DNA from: Bacilli bacterium
Lineage (GTDB): Bacteria > Bacillota_I > Bacilli_A > RFN20 > CAG-826
NCBI GenBank assembly: GCA_024399115.1
Contig: JAKSHZ010000005.1
Coordinates: forward strand, 1,853-65,852
DNA: 64,000 nucleotides
Direction of reading: 5' to 3'
Position numbers and translations under genes: made by a program. The notes under the pieces are model-generated. The model was not told where the DNA came from. It ran no database searches and was given only the letters and a program-made list of their open reading frames with translations. Shown here piece by piece: positions 54,372-64,000 of this stretch (position 1 is its first letter; every line of letters starts with the position of its first letter).

Positions 54372-54623
54372 ATGCGCTTATTACGTGGTTATCCCCAAAC
54401 CCTAGTTTCCAAGACATTAAATATTCACAGTTCAACGCTTTCCAAGTATGAAAACGATTATCTCCTACCTAACGTCCACGTCCTTATTAATCTTTCTATT
54501 CTTTACAAAACAAGTGTAGATAAACTTATTGGACATAGCTACAAAAATAGCCCTAAAAAATTAGGGCATAAATTCTATAACGATATTGAATGTTCTTTAG
54601 AACAATTAGATAAACAAAGGTAA
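54372..54623 (+). CDS. small XRE-family HTH regulator
   Basis: LVSKTLNIHSSTLSKYEN HTH. The first in-frame ATG is at 54372; the track start is a TTG. No clear SD. Confidence 0.55.
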   Translation: MRLLRGYPQTLVSKTLNIHSSTLSKYENDYLLPNVHVLINLSILYKTSVDKLIGHSYKNSPKKLGHKFYNDIECSLEQLDKQR

Positions 54624-55913
54624 TATAGCGATTGCTGCAACAGCTGTTGGGATTCCAATTACTAAGCCATATTTAACGAAATCTAAAAATGTGTATTTTA
54701 CGTTATGGTTTGATAAGATTCCCATCCACATAATTCCTGCAAGAGCTCCTAATGGAGTTATGAATGCTCCTAAGTTGCTTCCAATAATTGAAGAATACAC
54801 TGGAAGCATAGTTAAATTAACGCCCATATTTGAAATAATTTCAGAGAATAAAACAGACATCGGGATATTGTTAACTAAGTTACAAGCGACTAATGAAGTA
54901 AATCCATAAACAAAATTAGTTCCTTTTGTACCGAATAATTCACATAATGAAGCAGAAATTCCGTAATAAGTTAAACAAAGTGAAATTGTAAACATTCCTA
55001 AAAGGAATGGTATTAACTCATATGGCAATCTCTTGAATGTATCTAAAAGCCCATTTGGCTTTTCTTTTTTTATTAAGCAATATGCCAAGCAAGAAATAAC
55101 TAAAATCACGAAACACGATAACGAAACTAAGTACATTTCGAGAAAATCAATATAGCTAGAAAGTACCAATAAGACCGTACATATACCGAGAATAACGACA
55201 CCGACTATTGTTAAAGGCACTGACTTCAACATTGCAACTTCCTCTGAATATTCAAAGTTTGTTTTTAGATCTTTTCTGAAAATTAAATATAACACTGACA
55301 TCTCGACAATACCTGCAACAAGTGTTGGAATAGCCATAACCTTGAAATAATCAATGAACTTAATTCCAAAATAAGAACCGAGATAAATATTTGTAGGATT
55401 TCCAATGATGAACATCATGCTCCAAGTATTAGCTAAAATAAATTCACTCACTAAATAAGGAATTGGATTACATTTTGTTCTCTTGCAAAAGAAAATAATG
55501 AATGGAGTAAAAGTTAAAATGACTATGTCATTTGAAGTAAACATAGTTAGTACAGCGATAAGTGCACATAAAGCAAAATATACTTTGATTTGTGATGATT
55601 TACTTTTACTAACTACTTTATAAGCTAAGTAAGAAAACAATCCCATCTCATCTAAGAAAATTGATAGGCCAGTCATGCTTAAGAATAAGATTAAAATCTT
55701 AACAGGATTCATTCCACTATTAGAAAATAATCCGTCTGTGAATTCGTTAAATGGAATAAATTTAAAGAGAACAAAAATAATTCCTATTAATAAAGGAAAG
55801 GCCCAATATAACTTAAGATTATAATTCCTAATCTTAATTCCGAAGTTAGTTACGGAACTTACTATCAATCCAATTAATGCGACGATGGAAAGAATAATTA
55901 CAGCAATTTTCAT
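54606..55913 (-). CDS. ArsB/NhaD-superfamily permease (12-TM anion/cation transporter)
   Basis: 435 aa, polytopic. Overlaps the malQ stop by 4 nt. Confidence 0.55.
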   Translation of the reverse strand: MKIAVIILSIVALIGLIVSSVTNFGIKIRNYNLKLYWAFPLLIGIIFVLFKFIPFNEFTDGLFSNSGMNPVKILILFLSMTGLSIFLDEMGLFSYLAYKVVSKSKSSQIKVYFALCALIAVLTMFTSNDIVILTFTPFIIFFCKRTKCNPIPYLVSEFILANTWSMMFIIGNPTNIYLGSYFGIKFIDYFKVMAIPTLVAGIVEMSVLYLIFRKDLKTNFEYSEEVAMLKSVPLTIVGVVILGICTVLLVLSSYIDFLEMYLVSLSCFVILVISCLAYCLIKKEKPNGLLDTFKRLPYELIPFLLGMFTISLCLTYYGISASLCELFGTKGTNFVYGFTSLVACNLVNNIPMSVLFSEIISNMGVNLTMLPVYSSIIGSNLGAFITPLGALAGIMWMGILSNHNVKYTFLDFVKYGLVIGIPTAVAAIAILPLFI

Positions 55914-57319
55914 AATCCGTATTTAATCTTTTTAATGTATGAACTATCAACTAATTTCCATTCCCAGTTAGGAGAGCCAACTGTTCCAGGAAGATTCATA
56001 CGAGCAGATGTATCTAATCTCATTAAATCTTGTAATGGGAAAATAGTCATATATGAATCCATTTCCCAAGTAAAATCAAAGATTAATTCAAATAAATCAC
56101 CTTCTCCAAATCTACGTTTCAAGAAAGAAATAGCGTTTTCATCTAAATTATTAATCCAACCTTGAAGGGTGTCATTATCATGAGTTCCAGGATAAACAAT
56201 TTGAGTGTCTTTAGACTTACACCACTCATCAAAAATAGTAAATTGGGTAATGTACATACCTGGGAATTCATAATAATCTCTTAAATCATGAACACTTTGG
56301 AATAATTCTCCTAAGTCTTCAGCAATAACATTAATATCAGGATATGCAGCAAACAATGAATCAAAGAACTTTGTTCTTGGTCCGATTTTCCATTCCCCTC
56401 TTCTTGCGTTTTCATCTGTTGCAGGGATGACACAATATGTATCCCATGCTCTGAAGTGATCAAGTCTTAAATAATCACAAGTTGAAGCAAGATAACCAAT
56501 TCTATGAACTAAGAATTTAAAGTTATCTTTTTGCATTTTTTCAAAATCAAAAATAGGTGTGCCCCATAATTGTCCATCATCACTAAAAGCATCTGGTGGA
56601 CATCCACTGACTAATGTTGGTTCATAGTGTTCGTTCATTACGAATTGATCTTTATTTAACCAGCAATCAGTTGAATCGATACCGACATAGAAAGGACAAT
56701 CAGCAATTAATTTTAAGTCTATCTTTTTAAGATAATCTCTAAGTGCTTCATATTGTAATTTTGCGATAAATTGGCAGAAAATGTAGAATTCGCATTCATT
56801 TTCTGCTCCTTTTGGAATCTCATTTATTGCGTGATTGTCATAATAGAATTTCATCTCTGGATTCCAAGAATTCCAAATAGCAAAATTATTTACCCCTCTA
56901 AAATATGTAAAGACTGCATAAGGATAAACCCATTGATTTTCCTTAAGGAACTTCTTATATCCTCTAAATGGGTGTTTTTTAAAATTAATAAAAGCTCTCA
57001 TTAAGTATGTCTTTTTAAATTCCCATACTTTTTGATAATCAACTTTATCTCCGCTTGGGTATTTTTTAACACTATTTAACAAGCCTTTTTTGACTAACCA
57101 ATTAAGGTCGATATATCTAGGTTCGATTGCTTCGCTACATACTGAGATGTACGGAGAGTTTCCTGGACCGACTGGGTTAATTGGTAAAATTTGCCAGTAC
57201 TTATAGCCTTTTGCTTTAATTGTGTCTGCAAAAGTATAAGCAGCTTGTCCAAAGTCACCAATTCCATGGTCTCCCGGTAAAGAAGATATCGCTAGTAAGA
57301 CACCATATTTATCGTTCAT
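55910..57319 (-). CDS. malQ: 4-alpha-glucanotransferase (amylomaltase)
   Basis: GVLLAISSLPGDHGIGDFG N-terminus; GH77 length (469 aa). Confidence 0.9.
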   Translation of the reverse strand: MNDKYGVLLAISSLPGDHGIGDFGQAAYTFADTIKAKGYKYWQILPINPVGPGNSPYISVCSEAIEPRYIDLNWLVKKGLLNSVKKYPSGDKVDYQKVWEFKKTYLMRAFINFKKHPFRGYKKFLKENQWVYPYAVFTYFRGVNNFAIWNSWNPEMKFYYDNHAINEIPKGAENECEFYIFCQFIAKLQYEALRDYLKKIDLKLIADCPFYVGIDSTDCWLNKDQFVMNEHYEPTLVSGCPPDAFSDDGQLWGTPIFDFEKMQKDNFKFLVHRIGYLASTCDYLRLDHFRAWDTYCVIPATDENARRGEWKIGPRTKFFDSLFAAYPDINVIAEDLGELFQSVHDLRDYYEFPGMYITQFTIFDEWCKSKDTQIVYPGTHDNDTLQGWINNLDENAISFLKRRFGEGDLFELIFDFTWEMDSYMTIFPLQDLMRLDTSARMNLPGTVGSPNWEWKLVDSSYIKKIKYGL

Positions 57320-57320
57320 A

Positions 57321-57878
57321 TTACTTGAGATATCCTTCCTTAACTAAGAGTTCTAGAACTCTAGCTTCTCTTTCAATCATAGTTGGATCTTTTGGTCCAT
57401 GTTCTGGTTTTCTATTAGCCTCTAAAGCAACTTTGTAATCAACATATTCGAGAGTGAAGTGCTCTTCAGCCTCGTATGCATCGAGGTTTTGTTCGAAAAC
57501 TCCATCAACTACATCGCAGAAATAATAATAATTATCTTGGATGAAAAGGTCGCAATCAAAACGAACTCCCTTTTGAATTCTACGAACTAAACCATATTCT
57601 TTTATAGATTCAGGAATAACAATTAATCCTGCTTCTTCTTTTGTTTCTCTGATAAGTGCATCAATATTAGATTCGCCCTTATCAATTCCCCCGCCTGGAA
57701 ATTTATAATAATCATACTTTAAAGAGTGGACCATATAAATCTTATTATCTTTGATAATAATAGAACGCGATGAAGGCCTTACTAGCTTAATTCCATTAGG
57801 ATTATAATTCTTTAAATCTATTACAAATAGTTCTCTCATTAGCAAGTTCCTTCCCCGTTTTTCCAAAACGCAATTCAT
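57321..57878 (-). CDS. NUDIX hydrolase
   Basis: Nudix box GGGIDKGESNIDALIRETKEEAGL. Stop is 1 nt before the malQ ATG. Confidence 0.8.
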   Translation of the reverse strand: MNCVLEKRGRNLLMRELFVIDLKNYNPNGIKLVRPSSRSIIIKDNKIYMVHSLKYDYYKFPGGGIDKGESNIDALIRETKEEAGLIVIPESIKEYGLVRRIQKGVRFDCDLFIQDNYYYFCDVVDGVFEQNLDAYEAEEHFTLEYVDYKVALEANRKPEHGPKDPTMIEREARVLELLVKEGYLK

Positions 57879-57977: not shown

Positions 57978-58979
57978 ATGTCAAAAAAGACCACTACTGA
58001 TCAAAATAAGAAAATGACTATTGATGAATATATCGATAAATACTCACTTCCAAAAAGACAAAAAGAATATAAAGCTCTTCTTGCTTTATTTGTTTCTGCT
58101 ATCGGAGTGATTATTGGAGTAATGCTTTTCTTCTTTGTAGAAAAGTTATTCCAAATGAATGAATATGTCGGCTATGCTGGCATTGTATTAAGTGTTGTTT
58201 TATTTGTTCTTCTATACATTGTCCCAATTGTAAAAATCTCAAAAACTAACTTCTTCATGACTGACGTTAATAAAGAAAACGCAAGAGCAGCAAAAAGATA
58301 TAACAGAAGAATGCGTGAAGATATCGCTGATAAAATGATCGACATGAAACAAGCTACAAAAGATAATGGCTGGTTCTCTGATGAAAAAATTACTGAAATC
58401 GCGATTGCTAGAGCAAAAGACGACGATAAAGCTTTAAGCACTGCTCTTACTAATATCTATAACACTGATATTAAGGATGCAGCTCATAAATTAATTACAG
58501 ACTCAGCTGTTCAAGTTGGTATCTCTACATCCATCTCTCAATCTGAAAAAATCGATACATTAATCGTCACAGTTGCAGAGTTAAATTTAGTAAAGAAAAT
58601 CGTATATCTTTATGGATATAGACCAAACGACGCTCAAATGTTAAAGATTTATAAGACCGTTTTCTCTAATGCAATCTTTGCATATGGAGTTCAAGCATCA
58701 GCAGGCGCTGTTGCAGGCGGTATAGCAAAATTAATCGGAAGTGCTGCTGAAGCAATTCCATTAATTTCAACTGTTATCGGAAGCGTATCTTCTGGCATCA
58801 TTAATTCAACATTAACAGTTATGATTGGTTTCCAAACAATCAGATACTTAAAACGTGAATATAAACTTCAAGAAATCCTCGATGGCATCGAGATTGAAGA
58901 GTCCGAAGAAGCCGAAGCAAAAATGATTAGCAACGTCAAAAATAGCGTTGTTAAAACAACTAAGAATAAAGCTGCTTAA
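57978..58979 (+). CDS. membrane protein, DUF697/YcjF-like (tentative)
   Basis: 2 N-terminal TM helices, a central soluble region, and a C-terminal Gly/Ala-rich amphipathic segment (GVQASAGAVAGGIAKLIGSAAEAIP). GGAGG SD upstream. Confidence 0.5.
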   Translation: MSKKTTTDQNKKMTIDEYIDKYSLPKRQKEYKALLALFVSAIGVIIGVMLFFFVEKLFQMNEYVGYAGIVLSVVLFVLLYIVPIVKISKTNFFMTDVNKENARAAKRYNRRMREDIADKMIDMKQATKDNGWFSDEKITEIAIARAKDDDKALSTALTNIYNTDIKDAAHKLITDSAVQVGISTSISQSEKIDTLIVTVAELNLVKKIVYLYGYRPNDAQMLKIYKTVFSNAIFAYGVQASAGAVAGGIAKLIGSAAEAIPLISTVIGSVSSGIINSTLTVMIGFQTIRYLKREYKLQEILDGIEIEESEEAEAKMISNVKNSVVKTTKNKAA

Positions 58980-59689
58980 TTTTTAATTAACTTATTAAGA
59001 AATATCAAAAGATCCGAGTTATCAGTTGATATTTCTTTTTTTATGTCACTGTAGTTTGCTTTTACGAGACAATTTCTAAAATGTTCTGAACCTTCAATAA
59101 AAACACTAGTATCAAGATTGAATCCTAAACTTTCAAGATACTTAATTAAAAAGATTGCTGTTGTTCTTGTGTTTCCTTCTTCAAAAGGATGTATTTGCCA
59201 CAAATCTGTAACAAAGTTAGCGATATGCTCAATTTTCTTATCAAATGTTTTTCCTTTGTATGTAAAGCTTTTCTCTTTTTTAAGATCGTAATGAATGGTC
59301 TCTTCAAGTTCTCTAAAATCACAATACGAGACTGATGCACCATTCAATATTGATTCCTTTTTAGAAATATTAAACGTTCTGAATTTACCACCGCTTTGAT
59401 AGATGTCCTTAAATAAAAATGCATGAATATTTTTAAAGAAACTCAAAGAAAATTCAAATGTTGTTTCATCAAGTAATTTTGCAATTCTTATAGCAACAAG
59501 ATCTGCTTCAAAAACCCTGCTTTCAGCTTGATTATTTTTTACAGCATCTTCGAAACTGTTTAAGTCAATATCCCCATTTACATACCGAGATAATTGTTCA
59601 TTAAAAACTGAAGAATTCGTTAAGTTGTCGACTTTCTGAAGCCCTATTCCAACAAATAAATTTTGAATCTTTTTTTCCTTAATTTGCAT
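58976..59689 (-). CDS. Fic/DOC-family protein with non-canonical motif HPFEEGNTRTT
   Basis: 237 aa. The Fic core HPFx(D/E)GNGRxxR appears here as HPFEEGNTR-TT. Its stop codon overlaps the stop of the convergent gene. No SD before the ATG. Confidence 0.7.
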   Translation of the reverse strand: MQIKEKKIQNLFVGIGLQKVDNLTNSSVFNEQLSRYVNGDIDLNSFEDAVKNNQAESRVFEADLVAIRIAKLLDETTFEFSLSFFKNIHAFLFKDIYQSGGKFRTFNISKKESILNGASVSYCDFRELEETIHYDLKKEKSFTYKGKTFDKKIEHIANFVTDLWQIHPFEEGNTRTTAIFLIKYLESLGFNLDTSVFIEGSEHFRNCLVKANYSDIKKEISTDNSDLLIFLNKLIKN

Positions 59690-59738: not shown

Positions 59739-59772
59739 AAAAACAAAAAAAGGATGCTATGCATCCTAATTA
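59739..59772 (-). terminator. terminator after tRNA-Ala
   Basis: AGGATGC-tatg-GCATCCT hairpin followed by a T-run on the minus strand. Confidence 0.5.
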
Positions 59773-59776
59773 ATAC

Positions 59777-59852
59777 TGGTGGACCTGAAGAGGCTCGAAC
59801 TCTCCACCTCTTCCATGCCATGGAAGCGCTCTCCCAGATGAGCTACAGGCCC
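59777..59852 (-). tRNA. tRNA-Ala (anticodon GGC)
   Basis: Reverse complement folds as GGGCCTG / GCTC-ATCTGGGA-GAGC / CTTCC-ATGGCAT-GGAAG / GAGAG-TTCGAGC-CTCTT / CAGGTCC-A-CCA. The G3:U70 alanine identity pair is present. Confidence 0.85.
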
Positions 59853-59878: not shown

Positions 59879-60445
59879 TTAAAAATTGTTGTTGTTATTG
59901 TTTGCTTTTATTTCAGCACCGTATTTAAAGATAACTGAGATAAGTAATAATGCTATTGGATCAAATAAAGATATACTCCAATCGAAATCAGCAGTTGCAT
60001 CTCCATTTCCGAAAGCAACGATAGCAAAAGCTATAGCAGCAATAATTCCAGAAACAATTGAAACGATGATTGATCTAATTGCTGTTTTCATTAATAAGTC
60101 TGCACCATCAAAAGTAAAAGGTTGACCATCATTAATTTCTTTATCTAAATAAATAGCGTGTAGCTTGCAATTGATTGCCCCGCCTACACAAAGAATAGAT
60201 CCAAATAAACAATTTGCAGCAAGAACCACTTTATTCATTCCTGTTTCTTCTAAGATAATGACTTCGATTGTTTTGCTATCAACTGTAATATCGAAGAAAG
60301 TTGAAACACCAGCGTTTGCTAATAATGCAAAAACACCGCTAGCTAAACTTAATACGCCTCCAACGATACAGCATACAAAACCAATCTTCACAATAACGCG
60401 AAGAACTTTCATTACTGTTTGAATAATTTTTAAACTTCTAGACAT
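59879..60445 (-). CDS. hypothetical membrane protein (4-5 TM, Asn6 C-terminal tail)
   Basis: 188 aa, downstream of the Fe-ADH in the same orientation. Confidence 0.45.
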   Translation of the reverse strand: MSRSLKIIQTVMKVLRVIVKIGFVCCIVGGVLSLASGVFALLANAGVSTFFDITVDSKTIEVIILEETGMNKVVLAANCLFGSILCVGGAINCKLHAIYLDKEINDGQPFTFDGADLLMKTAIRSIIVSIVSGIIAAIAFAIVAFGNGDATADFDWSISLFDPIALLLISVIFKYGAEIKANNNNNNF

Positions 60446-60462
60446 TTTTCTACCTCTAAAGA

Positions 60463-61665
60463 TTAATTTCCTTTAAGCTCAAATAACATATCACATACGT
60501 CTTTCTTTTTCCATACTTGTGGGCAAGGATAGACTGGATTTGCTTCTTTAATAACCCATCTAGAAATCATATTGAAGTCTTCCTCATTAATTTGAGGGAA
60601 ACTACTTCCAATTCCCATTTGTTTATTTACTTCTTCAATCCAAGTGATGAAGTTATTTGCTTTTTCTGAATCGGTGTTACCAGACATACCACAAATTGTA
60701 GCCAATTTAGCAAGTCTTTGTTCAGCGCTCTTTCCATACTTTCTCATAACGTGAGGTAAGATAACCGCCATAGCTTCACCATGGCTAATATGATATTGTC
60801 CACCTAATGAGTGTCCAATAGCATGAACATAACCTACACCAGCACGTGAAATAGCGCGACCAGCATACATAGCAGCGAGTTGCATATTCTTTCTTACTTC
60901 TAAATCACTACCATCTGAGTAAGCCTTATAAATGTTTTCATAAATTAACTTAACAGCTTGTTCACAAAGTCTATTTTCTTTCTTTGTGTTGTACTTTTTA
61001 TTTGTGTAACCTTCTACTGCATGAGTAAGAGCATCCATACCAGTTGTTGCTGTCATAAATGGAGGCAAATCTCTTGTTAATGTAGGATCAAGAATTGCTC
61101 TATTAGGCATTAAGAATGGGTCTGCCATTGGCATCTTACGACCATTCTTTTCATCGGTAATAACCGCTGCAATTGTAGCTTCACTTCCTGTACCTGATGT
61201 AGTTGGAACAGCATAGAACATAGGAATTCTTTTTCTTATAGAAAGTATGCTAAGGAACTTACGAACATCTTTCTTAGGTTTAGCAACTTTTGCACCAATG
61301 ATTTTTGCAGCGTCCATTGGAGATCCGCCACCTAAAGCAACGATGCAATCGCATTTCTCAATTTTATAAACCTCATAACCATTTAAAACGTTATCACAAG
61401 TTGGATTTGGGAAAACATCTGAGAATACAGCAGAAGATAATCCTAAAGATTCGAGTTTCTCAACTAAAGGCTTATGAGCACCTTTATTAAAGTGATATTT
61501 ACCAGTTACGATGAGTGGCTTTTTATAGCCATCTTTTTTAATAATTTCTGGCAATTCTAAAAAGCATCCTTCGCCTTCAGTGATGATTGGATCTTTATAA
61601 AAGACCATGTAGTAAAAGATTTTAACAAAGAATTGACTTACCCTACAAAGGAATTTACTTTCCAT
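60463..61665 (-). CDS. iron-containing (group III) alcohol dehydrogenase
   Basis: GGGSPMDAAK motif and His-rich metal site (HAIGHSLGGQYHISHG). GGAG SD before the ATG at 61665. The alternative start is 61608. Confidence 0.85.
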   Translation of the reverse strand: MESKFLCRVSQFFVKIFYYMVFYKDPIITEGEGCFLELPEIIKKDGYKKPLIVTGKYHFNKGAHKPLVEKLESLGLSSAVFSDVFPNPTCDNVLNGYEVYKIEKCDCIVALGGGSPMDAAKIIGAKVAKPKKDVRKFLSILSIRKRIPMFYAVPTTSGTGSEATIAAVITDEKNGRKMPMADPFLMPNRAILDPTLTRDLPPFMTATTGMDALTHAVEGYTNKKYNTKKENRLCEQAVKLIYENIYKAYSDGSDLEVRKNMQLAAMYAGRAISRAGVGYVHAIGHSLGGQYHISHGEAMAVILPHVMRKYGKSAEQRLAKLATICGMSGNTDSEKANNFITWIEEVNKQMGIGSSFPQINEEDFNMISRWVIKEANPVYPCPQVWKKKDVCDMLFELKGN

Positions 61666-61666
61666 A

Positions 61667-62833
61667 TTAATACTCCAATCTTAAGTCACTTAAAGTGCCT
61701 AAATATTTCTTTAATTCTTCATAGCAAACATCAAATCTGCTATGATTCATTCCTTCCGCACCAATTGTCCAATAAAGCATATGAATGAATGTTAAACACA
61801 TCATCTTATCTAAGTTAGCTTTATATTGCTCGTCACTTAAATTAGAGAAATATAAACGAGTTGTATCGTAATAAATCTTTGCACAAGTTTCAGCACTTAG
61901 TTTTAAGAAATTCATTGTGTTGCCTTTTTCTGTTTTCTCAAATGCGATATATGTAGCACCAATAGCAGCCATCTCAAAAATAGGATCGCCATAAGATAAT
62001 GTATCCATATCGATTAAAGCCGGTTCGTCTTTTTCGACCATAATGTTTTTAATATGGCAATCACCATGTACTAATGTATTTCTATCTGGAATACTTGCTA
62101 ATAATTCATTGATTTTCGCAAAATCCTCTTTACTAACATATGGTTCGAAACGTTTAACAAATTCAAACTCTAATTCTTTCGCACTAGGGATCTTAAAATC
62201 ACCTTTTTCGGTTGTTCCAAGCTTCTTTAACAAATTAGCGTACATTATAATGTATTCGTCTAATTTGTCTGGATTTTTAAGGATGCAATCTCTTAAGGAA
62301 AGACAGTCTAGCATTTCAAAGACAACACCATATCTTTCTCCTACCTTAACAACATCAAATGAAATAGATGTAGGAACTCCTAAAATAAACGCTTGTTTAC
62401 AAAGGTTAAGTTCTCTTTGAATATCGTTTAAATCAGTTGTGTTTGTAATAACTTTAATGATTGTATCTTTGTTAAGTCTATAGACTTTTGAGCAGAATCC
62501 ATCACCAATTAATTCTGCGCCTTCAATTGAAACTTCTCTCATCTCTTTTTCAATTTTGATGATTGAAGAAAAACCTGTCATTTCAAATACATCGTATACT
62601 TCAACAGATACATTAATGACTTTAAACTCGCTATATGTCTTAGCTAATCTTAAAACCACTCTGAGACCAGCGCTTGAAATATACTTAGTAGCTTCGAAGT
62701 CTAAAGCTAATGAATCAAATTGATTTGCAGCGATAATTTTATCGACTTCATTAGAAAACTCTTCTGCGTTTGAGCTATCCACTCTTTCTCCGCAGATGAT
62801 TGTTAAACACTCTTCATTAAGCTTAAAGTCCAT
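61667..62833 (-). CDS. STAS-domain plus APH/choline-kinase-like protein kinase fusion
   Basis: N-terminal roughly 100 aa resemble an anti-sigma antagonist STAS (SSAGLRVVLRL). The rest is a kinase fold: Gly-rich loop GDGFCSKVY, catalytic HGDCHIKN, and DMDTLSYGDP. Its TAA lies 1 nt before the Fe-ADH ATG. Confidence 0.65.
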   Translation of the reverse strand: MDFKLNEECLTIICGERVDSSNAEEFSNEVDKIIAANQFDSLALDFEATKYISSAGLRVVLRLAKTYSEFKVINVSVEVYDVFEMTGFSSIIKIEKEMREVSIEGAELIGDGFCSKVYRLNKDTIIKVITNTTDLNDIQRELNLCKQAFILGVPTSISFDVVKVGERYGVVFEMLDCLSLRDCILKNPDKLDEYIIMYANLLKKLGTTEKGDFKIPSAKELEFEFVKRFEPYVSKEDFAKINELLASIPDRNTLVHGDCHIKNIMVEKDEPALIDMDTLSYGDPIFEMAAIGATYIAFEKTEKGNTMNFLKLSAETCAKIYYDTTRLYFSNLSDEQYKANLDKMMCLTFIHMLYWTIGAEGMNHSRFDVCYEELKKYLGTLSDLRLEY

Positions 62834-62844
62834 AATTTTCTCCT

Positions 62845-63522
62845 TTATTTTTCCAATTCATGATGATGTATTTCGTTATTGTCTGTAGGTACTAAAAATC
62901 TACCACTAATCCAATAACATAAGACTGAAATTCCAATCGCATATAACTTGCCGATGTAAGAACCTAATAGCATTCCAATAAATGAGGCTGAGTTTCCATT
63001 AATGATCAAAACTCCACCATAATAAATAGTCGAATTTATAACCCCACCAATCAATATAGCTAAGAATATACGAAGATATACGCTCATATTCTTAGAATGT
63101 TCCAAGAAATAGAACATAATCCAAATGCCCAATAATGACCCTAATGCGCTACTCAAATAGTTAGCAAAATTCAGCATCAAGTCTGCTGAATATCCAAAGG
63201 AAATAATCTTAGCTAAGAATTCAAAAACGGCTGATAAAACGATCGCAACAATAGAAGCAATTGCCATGTTTTTAGCTTCTTTTAATGAGTAATGTAAATA
63301 CTTAACAATAATTGTATAAATAAAGAGCGTATAGAGGATTGAATCGAATGCAAAAATAAATGGTCCACAACTAACTGGAGTATTTAATGCATGAAAGAAA
63401 TTAGAGCTACATGCAGCACCAATTGAAAAAGCAATAAGAACGAAACTATCGAACCATTTTCTTAAGATGATGAGTGTTAAAAATACACCTAAACCTGCTA
63501 AAGCTAAAAAGAATACATTCAT
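62845..63522 (-). CDS. hypothetical polytopic membrane protein (possibly VUT/YhhQ-like)
   Basis: 225 aa, 6-7 TM helices. Family assignment uncertain. Confidence 0.45.
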   Translation of the reverse strand: MNVFFLALAGLGVFLTLIILRKWFDSFVLIAFSIGAACSSNFFHALNTPVSCGPFIFAFDSILYTLFIYTIIVKYLHYSLKEAKNMAIASIVAIVLSAVFEFLAKIISFGYSADLMLNFANYLSSALGSLLGIWIMFYFLEHSKNMSVYLRIFLAILIGGVINSTIYYGGVLIINGNSASFIGMLLGSYIGKLYAIGISVLCYWISGRFLVPTDNNEIHHHELEK

Positions 63523-63584
63523 AATTTTATTATGCTACATTTTGCGGGTGAAAAAAATAATTATTAAATTAATTTTTTCAGTTA

Positions 63585-63612
63585 GAATTTTAAGCGAAAG
63601 AAAAGAGCCTAT
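63585..63612 (-). terminator. terminator after the upstream minus-strand gene
   Basis: GCCTA-gaaa-TAGGC followed by TCTTTTCTTT on the minus strand. Confidence 0.4.
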
Positions 63613-63640
63613 TTCTAGGCCCTTATTAATCTTTAAAAGA

Positions 63641-64000
63641 TTAATCGATTTCCCCTTTTCTATATGCTCTCTTAAATTTTCTCTTAGCGATAGAATAAAT
63701 TCCTGAGTATAAGAAGTTAACGATGAGTAATGCTGCAGGAATTGTAGCAGAGAACATCATACTAATTGAAAGTCCTTGTGGGATCATCTTAACAATTTCA
63801 CCAACAAATGGAACACTTTGAACTGGTGTTAAATCGACTTTTGAAATTAAGATAAAGATGAGTGAAATTAAACCTAAAAGTAATTGGACAAATCCTAAAA
63901 GGATACCGAATAATTCTTTTCTGATATATGGTTTCTTTGCAAACAAAGAGAAGATACATTGTAAGACTTTGATTGCCCAAACAAACATAAATGCAACAAC
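63641..64000 (-). CDS. hypothetical small membrane protein, probably 5'-partial (ORF stays open to the window end)
   Basis: 2-3 TM helices. The reading frame continues upstream of the track's ATG at 63988 without a stop. Confidence 0.4.
   Translation of the reverse strand, partial: VVAFMFVWAIKVLQCIFSLFAKKPYIRKELFGILLGFVQLLLGLISLIFILISKVDLTPVQSVPFVGEIVKMIPQGLSISMMFSATIPAALLIVNFLYSGIYSIAKRKFKRAYRKGEID

Follow-up and report, generated by a model that had tools for sequence, protein, structure and literature searches.

Partner-switching was long regarded as a device for controlling sigma factors, but recent work has shown STAS phospho-switches acting directly on enzymes and repressors. In two such systems the STAS domain is fused to the effector and switched by serine phosphorylation: Anabaena All4160 is a STAS-glycosyltransferase that works with the PP2C phosphatase HenR and the kinase Alr3423 (PMC13555669), and CapS is a STAS-winged helix-turn-helix repressor that works with the GHKL kinase CapK (PMC13373217). 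In Vibrio fischeri, SypE is described as bifunctional, an RsbW-like kinase and PP2C phosphatase acting on the STAS protein SypA (PMC10120452). Here we examine a gene in 64,000 nucleotides (nt) of DNA from a Bacilli bacterium (assembly GCA_024399115.1, contig JAKSHZ010000005.1, positions 1,853 to 65,852), a stretch that we refer to as the window. The gene (61667-62833, minus strand, from the list of open reading frames (ORFs)) encodes STAS-APH, a protein of 388 amino acids (aa) in which an anti-sigma-antagonist-type STAS domain is joined to a kinase domain of the APH/choline-kinase fold, and it is the second gene of an operon in which it is followed by a gene for an iron-dependent alcohol dehydrogenase (Fe-ADH). 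We propose that the STAS domain gates the kinase, that the protein serves a partner-switching-like module as its output, and that in the lineage of the window the switch is operated in trans, with the Fe-ADH a mere operon neighbour; we give this reading a probability of about one half.

The STAS domain occupies residues 1-99 (62537..62833; all features of the operon lie on the minus strand). The Pfam STAS profile (PF01740) matches residues 6-99 at 42.5 bits (E 6e-11) against a cut-off of 22.6, and the APH profile (PF01636) matches residues 107-292 at 51.7 bits (E 1.4e-13) against a cut-off of 23.2, which bears out both domain assignments of an earlier note made from the sequence alone. A profile of the family matches SpoIIAA chains at E 2e-11; the STAS domain can be aligned with SpoIIAA from end to end, and its four-strand beta-sheet plus helices superpose on SpoIIAA/RsbV. 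Ser54, within the motif YISSAGLR (residues 51-58; Ser54 codon at 62672-62674), is aligned with the serine that is phosphorylated in the DSSGL motif of SpoIIAA and stands at the N-terminus of helix 2. The kinase domain (residues 100-388, 61670..62536) has the bilobal kinase fold and carries a Gly-loop at 109-119, Lys127, Glu141, the catalytic loop HGDCHIKN at 256-263 (62045-62068) and IDMD at 274-277. The two motifs quoted in the earlier note, GDGFCSKVY (110-118) and HGDCHIKN, are both present, and the domain, judged by its residues, looks catalytically competent. An AlphaFold2 model built from a 67-sequence alignment has a pLDDT of 90.3 and a pTM of 0.75, with values of 86-88 in the linker blocks; the linker between the two domains is short and conserved. 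The best NCBIfam match, TIGR02172 (E 5e-29, model positions 7-192 of 226), scores 101.8 bits, below its cut-off of 228.2, and a 49%-identical relative (P0030) has been named TIGR02172 by JGI. No substrate-specific equivalog in NCBIfam was matched at its cut-off (SrkA 22.8 of 194 bits, MTRK 18.9 of 275, ThiK 15.1 of 299).

An assembly artefact that had joined two genes can be rejected. The identical protein is present in the NCBI metagenome-assembled genome (MAG) and in an independent Logan assembly, and the 120 best homologues are all STAS+APH proteins of 383-393 aa. Searching representatives of clusters at 50% identity returned 3789 matches with E<=1e-3, of which 586 have E<=1e-30, and nearly all of the best 150 matches span both domains. 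Since two independent assemblies agree and hundreds of clusters share the architecture, we conclude that the fusion is genuine, as the earlier note had supposed. A scan of a genome collection found 509 relatives, mainly in rumen and gut Bacilli ("Erysipelotrichaceae"-like MAGs) and some in Clostridia such as Vescimonas, Christensenella and Ruminococcus. A literature search returned no publication on the family, on TIGR02172 or on the STAS+APH architecture. In several longer relatives (P0148, P0237, P0203, P0238, P0247) the STAS-APH core is itself fused to a further domain, namely HD-CE, HD_4, a Na+/H+ exchanger, PHP or a nucleotidyltransferase (poly(A)-polymerase) head domain, an unexpectedly wide range of added modules.

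We used an alignment of 137 representatives, drawn from the clusters at 50% identity, to ask which residues the family keeps. Ser54 is present in all 137, and its neighbours Gly56 (100%) and Arg58 (99%) are constant or nearly so. In the kinase domain Lys127, Glu173, Asn263 and Asp275 are invariant and Asp258 is kept in 99%; the catalytic set as a whole (Lys127, Glu141, His256, Asp258, Asn263, Asp275) is present in the window protein and 96-100% conserved. By this measure the putative switch serine is as constrained as the active site. More than 90% conservation also extends over a family-specific motif of the N-lobe, AFxLGxPTAISxDxV (residues 148-162, approximately 62348-62392), which suggests a protein-docking surface; such strong conservation of this motif and of the N-lobe is unusual among APH-fold kinases. 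Past residue 282, no position reaches 90%. In APH and choline kinases this region is the helical lobe that forms the acceptor pocket, and the lack of any such position there is therefore evidence against one conserved small-molecule pocket. The substrate would more likely be a protein, or would vary between lineages, than be a single conserved small molecule.

The genomic neighbourhoods of the relatives point in the same direction as the conserved serine. Genes were called in all fetched loci, giving 94 distinct STAS-APH genes, 82 of them with an informative downstream neighbour. A SpoIIE-type gene lies immediately downstream on the same strand at 46 of these 82 loci and immediately upstream at six, and is found within three genes at 54 of the 94. 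The 42 distinct downstream phosphatases are 585-637 aa long and start mostly 1-3 nt past the STAS-APH stop; Pfam recognises SpoIIE in all of them and HATPase_c_2 in 40. When aligned, they share a multi-pass N-terminal membrane region and conserved PP2C motifs, and their GHKL domain keeps the N-box (Glu, Asn) and the G2 box (GGLG). Moreover, HATPase_c_2 is fused directly to STAS-APH in three relatives (P0143, P0179, P0228). This linkage to PP2C and GHKL domains, together with the fusions, is thus the signature of a partner-switching-like module whose STAS protein carries its own effector. The earlier note had offered a new STAS-regulated kinase as one of its two interpretations, and the invariant serine, the retained catalytic residues and the coupling or fusion of relatives to PP2C and GHKL domains all argue for it.

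Other recurring features of these loci concern how such a module might be arranged. Several genomes (L025, L030, L037, L076) have two STAS-APH copies beside one phosphatase, so that shared regulation, or regulation in trans, has a precedent within the family. A 97-aa STAS-only protein, also with the YISSAGLR motif, occurs in about one fifth of the loci (immediately upstream of STAS-APH in 16, within three genes in 21), and a subset of these loci also has, further upstream, genes for a 130-aa single-pass protein and for two ABC exporters, one of them carrying a C39 peptidase domain. The complete order, 130-aa protein, C39-domain ABC exporter, second ABC exporter, 97-aa STAS protein, STAS-APH and membrane-anchored PP2C-GHKL protein, is seen in L001 (886-8982) and likewise in L012, L014, L027, L033, L038, L039, L042, L045 and L086; this six-gene module may couple peptide export or sensing to the switch. 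Clustering of 408 neighbour proteins found the 130-aa protein as the only new recurring group, with no sigma factor and no further conserved neighbour among them.

The mechanism that we propose runs as follows. A STAS domain with a phosphorylatable Ser54 is held by a short conserved linker to an intact APH-fold kinase. Across the family at large, a membrane-anchored PP2C phosphatase of the SpoIIE type, usually fused to an RsbW-type GHKL serine kinase and encoded 1-3 nt downstream, would set the phosphorylation state of Ser54; this state would in turn switch the attached kinase on or off towards its substrate. The near-universal presence of a GHKL partner favours that canonical kinase as the one that would phosphorylate Ser54. 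In the window lineage the PP2C and GHKL domains are no longer encoded next door and an Fe-ADH stands in their place, so here the switch would probably be operated in trans.

The closest relatives of the window protein (P0002-P0008, 71-78% identical) form a clade with it, which is a separate branch of a neighbour-joining tree in which the midpoint root has PP2C-linked members on either side. No phosphatase gene was found in any locus of this clade. Instead, the Fe-ADH gene occupies, at 1-nt spacing in the window, the position usually held by the PP2C-GHKL gene, and it lies 1-3 nt downstream of STAS-APH in five of the six distinct clade loci (window/L096, L007/L097, L008, L009 and L111). In L111 the ADH gene is followed by a homologue of the window's last operon gene (mem188, described below; 30% identity) and then by a formate/nitrite-transporter-like gene. 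The sixth locus, L010, has the formate/nitrite-transporter-like gene directly after STAS-APH and lacks both ADH and mem188, whereas the operon's first gene, mem225, is kept; mem225 is upstream in every clade locus in which the upstream position is visible. The earlier note had proposed to look for co-occurrence with the ADH in other genomes, and this holds within the clade but fails beyond it: among the 94 surveyed family genes ADH adjacency is confined to the window clade (4 of 94 by automated count, five of the six clade loci by inspection), and an ADH or mem225 gene is near none of the 88 distinct genes that were surveyed outside the clade. Within the clade the STAS domain is 68% identical, the N-lobe 94.5% and the kinase C-lobe 73.5%; as the STAS domain is about as conserved as the C-lobe, it is not decaying. 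The C-terminal helices, by comparison, are only 30% identical between the window clade and the PP2C-linked group. Metagenome contigs searched for further window-clade loci yielded none, all matches being at most 48% identical.

The operon is headed by mem225 (62845-63522, from the ORF list), a gene for a 225-aa membrane protein that was absent from the earlier note. STAS-APH follows after 11 nt, with an AGGAG Shine-Dalgarno sequence 7 nt 5' of its ATG. Its TAA is 1 nt before the ADH ATG, just as the earlier note had read it (...GAGTAT TAA T ATG GAA, with GGAG upstream), and to judge from this TAA-T-ATG junction the ADH is translationally coupled to the kinase gene. The ADH (60463-61665, 400 aa), in the earlier note an Fe-alcohol dehydrogenase, is a group III iron-type enzyme: both halves are matched in Pfam (Fe-ADH, PF00465, and ADH_Fe_C, PF25137, at E 1e-47 and 1e-49), and it has the dinucleotide motif GGGS (112-115) and the Asp/His metal-ligand motifs DALTH (211-215), HAIGH (281-285) and HISHG (292-296). 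It reaches no NCBIfam equivalog cut-off, the highest score being 261 bits for lactaldehyde reductase (cut-off 523), and its closest PDB relatives (E 2e-62) are methanol, 1,3-propanediol and lactaldehyde dehydrogenases. The membrane protein that the earlier note placed after the ADH is mem188 (59879-60445, 188 aa), the last protein gene of the operon; it has about four hydrophobic segments and no match in Pfam, NCBIfam or PADLOC.

The mem225 protein has six to seven helices, and its predicted fold is the six-helix fold of the S component, the substrate-capture subunit, of an energy-coupling factor (ECF) transporter. None of 42 members of its family has a Pfam or NCBIfam match, and only 51 homologues were found. 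We considered whether it might be a detached form of the membrane domain of the partner phosphatases and rejected this, as BLASTP gave no match and hhalign a probability of 0.4%. We likewise rejected it as a conserved partner of the STAS-APH family, since homologues at 35-65% identity lie in unrelated contexts and not beside STAS-APH. In one distant lineage the homologue begins 9 nt after a thiamine pyrophosphokinase gene (L092 6357-7681; L093 2294-3618), which hints that this orphan S-component-like family imports thiamine or a related compound. The arrangement was not found in other lineages of mem225. In L098 the neighbour, a protein of 212 aa, is no thiamine pyrophosphokinase, which leaves a single lineage to carry the thiamine link; another lineage sits among glycoside hydrolase, hydrolase and NUDIX genes.

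Several observations weigh against a STAS-gated signalling kinase with a regulator in trans. Neither tblastn of the window with two partner phosphatases and the STAS-only protein as queries, nor a search of its six-frame ORFs with profiles built from the alignments of the phosphatases and of STAS-APH, turned up any gene for a PP2C, a GHKL or a second STAS protein in the 64 kb, and none was found in the 8 kb upstream in L096; the regulator in trans is for this reason assumed, not seen. The clade has retained its four-gene operon even as identity fell to 60% in the ADH and to 30% in mem188, a persistence that hints at a functional link with the ADH. In structure the kinase comes closest to small-molecule kinases, with which it shares 12-20% identity, and we found no experiment or publication for any member of the family. 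A bolder account would have the STAS-kinase of this lineage rewired, away from PP2C and GHKL, into a transport-redox operon: the APH domain would trap a hydroxylated micronutrient or alcohol by phosphorylation, the ECF-S-like protein would import it, the Fe-ADH would interconvert it and the STAS serine would provide phospho-control; alternatively, the whole family might use its ePK-like kinase in place of GHKL to phosphorylate STAS. We regard this pair of alternatives as distinctly improbable, though the former, if true, would mean that a STAS phospho-switch had for the first time been seen to govern a kinase of small-molecule salvage or catabolism. A plainer metabolic module seems to us unlikely: a small hydroxylated compound would be taken up through the ECF-S-like protein, interconverted by the Fe-ADH and phosphorylated by the clade kinase, so that an alcohol, an amino-alcohol or a vitamin-like molecule was salvaged or broken down, with STAS only a regulatory add-on. 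It draws on the operon's retention in five of the six distinct clade loci, on the tight translational coupling of the genes, on the predicted S-component fold of mem225 and its one lineage next to thiamine pyrophosphokinase, and on the choline, methylthioribose (MTR) and aminopropanol kinases among the structural neighbours of the kinase; the 30% identity of the C-terminal lobe between the clade and the PP2C-linked group would, in addition, allow a clade-specific substrate. However, the association with ADH and mem225 at none of the 88 genes outside the clade, the separation of mem225 homologues from STAS-APH elsewhere, and the survival of mem225 and STAS-APH without ADH and mem188 in L010 all speak against it, as does the failure of kinase and ADH alike to reach an NCBIfam equivalog. 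No phospho-lyase gene, microcompartment gene or riboswitch was found at the locus; phospho- or ammonia-lyase and shell genes are absent among the neighbours of the kinase (mem225, Fe-ADH, mem188, tRNA-Ala, Fic, DUF697, NUDIX, GH77 and CitMHS transporter genes), the rest of the window not having been scanned family by family. The kinase-dependent alcohol or amino-alcohol catabolic module that the earlier note had offered as its other interpretation is weakly supported: it has the persistence of a clade operon with an ECF-S-like protein on its side, and against it the restriction of the ADH link to the clade, the lack of an adjacent phospho-lyase or microcompartment gene and the unconserved substrate lobe. 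Because the family normally adjoins a phosphatase/kinase regulator and an ADH only here, and given the invariant phospho-serine, a signalling role fits better than alcohol breakdown.

If the family does signal, the question becomes which kinase acts on Ser54. The APH domain might phosphorylate the STAS serine of the same chain or of another subunit, and the 97-aa STAS protein might be a further target, with PP2C resetting the switch where present; we hold such a self-contained switch to be rather unlikely, and rate in the same way its corollary, that an ePK-like kinase stands in for the GHKL anti-sigma kinase. Family conservation is indeed concentrated in the STAS motif, the N-lobe with its 148-162 motif and the catalytic loops, with none in the usual substrate lobe, and the N-lobe is 94.5% identical within the window clade, which keeps Ser54 without an adjacent GHKL gene. 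Furthermore, two of the 42 adjacent phosphatases have no recognisable HATPase_c_2 and the C-terminus of the one in L004 no G2 box, so that the only kinase of those operons would be the APH domain. On the other side, 40 of the 42 partner phosphatases have an intact-looking GHKL domain and three relatives fuse one directly; with the canonical kinase already present, the APH domain is not needed as the STAS kinase. The short, confidently modelled linker, too, may fix the STAS domain to the N-lobe at a distance from the active site. An antibiotic-resistance phosphotransferase (an aminoglycoside, macrolide or tuberactinomycin kinase) with an incidental N-terminal domain would explain the many APH(2''), APH(3'), capreomycin/viomycin and macrolide phosphotransferases among the top structural matches, but identity to resistance enzymes is only 11-20%, there is no resistance-family match in NCBIfam, and no mobile-element context was seen. 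Nor are resistance genes like this family, which has a STAS domain fused on, is partnered by a PP2C-GHKL protein and is distributed across rumen and gut Bacilli and Clostridia, at times in more than one copy per genome, and we consider this explanation extremely improbable. A known anti-phage defence system was rejected as well, as neither the four operon genes nor the partner proteins encoded in relatives have a match in PADLOC. We return to the STAS-gated kinase as our preferred reading.

The signals around the operon appear to mark out a single unit. The four genes are bracketed by terminator-like hairpins at 63624-63603 (63603..63624, identified by consensus scan and sequence), at the end of the upstream gene for a 423-aa protein, and at 59767-59751 (59751..59767, hairpin plus T-run, consensus scan); the latter is the probable 3' end of the transcription unit. 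Directly 5' of mem225 lies a promoter-like site, TTCACC-17-TAAAAT (63524..63552), a consensus match of a kind that is rarer in the region than in shuffled versions of it. The mem225 ATG has no Shine-Dalgarno sequence (63523-63552) and a -10-like CATAAT/TAAAAT lies a few nucleotides upstream of it; since the Shine-Dalgarno sequence is lacking, the mem225 mRNA may be leaderless. A search for riboswitches upstream of the operon and of mem225 homologues found none. A co-oriented tRNA-Ala(GGC) (59777..59852; ARAGORN, Rfam tRNA 52.9 bits) starts 26 nt past the mem188 stop, right before the terminator-like hairpin, and may be co-transcribed with the four protein genes.

The operon is closely followed downstream by a gene for a 237-aa Fic-domain protein (58976-59689, minus strand). 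Nearly the full length of this protein is covered by its match to PDC-S72, a candidate defence family of PADLOC (E 1.4e-73), and PDC-S04 is matched as well; the 3' end of a convergent DUF697 membrane-protein gene (57978-58979, plus strand) overlaps the Fic gene by 4 nt. A NUDIX hydrolase gene (57321-57878) adjoins, with a 1-nt gap, a gene for a GH77 4-alpha-glucanotransferase (55910-57319, minus strand), which in turn overlaps by 4 nt a gene for a CitMHS/ArsB-type transporter (54606-55913, minus strand); these three look like ordinary housekeeping genes. At the other side, a 115-aa ORF at the window edge (63641-63988, minus strand) is the C-terminus of the 423-aa protein, which is full length in L096 (5965-7236) and has no Pfam match. 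In a related genome this protein is tandemly duplicated, with copies of 453 and 441 aa (L007 3689-5050 and 5201-6526), and two Peptidase_U32 genes lie further upstream.

The family is large, with at least 586 clusters at 50% identity, and abundant in rumen and gut Bacilli and Clostridia. If our reading is correct it would add a kinase as a new output class of STAS switches, and such an output would connect membrane PP2C/GHKL signalling to a second phosphorylation step. The window clade can be viewed as a natural experiment, in which the regulator has gone from beside the switch-kinase, whose companions in a conserved operon are now an uptake-type membrane protein and an ADH; the substrate of the clade's kinase would show whether the family signals or metabolises.

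How far, then, does the protein resemble what has been described? With the APH/choline-ethanolamine/MTR kinase superfamily (PF01636) it shares the bilobal ePK-like fold, the Gly-loop, the Lys-Glu pair, Brenner's HGDxHxxN and IDxD, whereas the N-terminal STAS domain and the N-lobe motif set it apart, as does an identity to solved kinases of 12-20%. TIGR02172, the Fibrobacter paralogous family, is its best NCBIfam match, below cut-off. The microcompartment aminopropanol kinase (PDB 6ef6) ranks only 16th among the structural matches and is not distinguished from other APH-fold matches; unlike in the pathway of that enzyme, no phospho-lyase or shell-protein gene is next to the window kinase, and the aminopropanol kinase system is not known to include a STAS domain.

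The resemblance to the switch proteins is closer. The STAS fold, the phospho-acceptor serine at the start of helix 2 and, among relatives, the adjoining SpoIIE-family PP2C and RsbW-type GHKL kinase domain are all as in the SpoIIAA/RsbV-SpoIIAB/RsbW-SpoIIE/RsbU systems of Bacillus. In contrast to those systems, the STAS domain here is fused to an APH-fold kinase instead of being a free antagonist, no sigma factor occurs in any surveyed STAS-APH neighbourhood, and phosphatase and GHKL kinase are parts of one membrane protein, with neither in the window. A GHKL serine kinase and a PP2C in one polypeptide, found in 40 of the 42 STAS-APH partner proteins, is also the arrangement of SypE. SypE is cytoplasmic, with a central receiver domain, whereas the STAS-APH partner has an N-terminal multi-pass membrane domain and its STAS target carries a kinase domain. 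All4160 and CapS differ in their outputs, the APH/choline-kinase fold being a class not described in the literature that we found, and the window copy differs from both in having no adjacent regulator. We conclude that the gene is an unusual-context variant of a known regulatory device, from a large uncharacterised family; as in All4160 and CapS, a GHKL kinase that adds the phosphate and a PP2C phosphatase that removes it would control its output directly, without a sigma factor.

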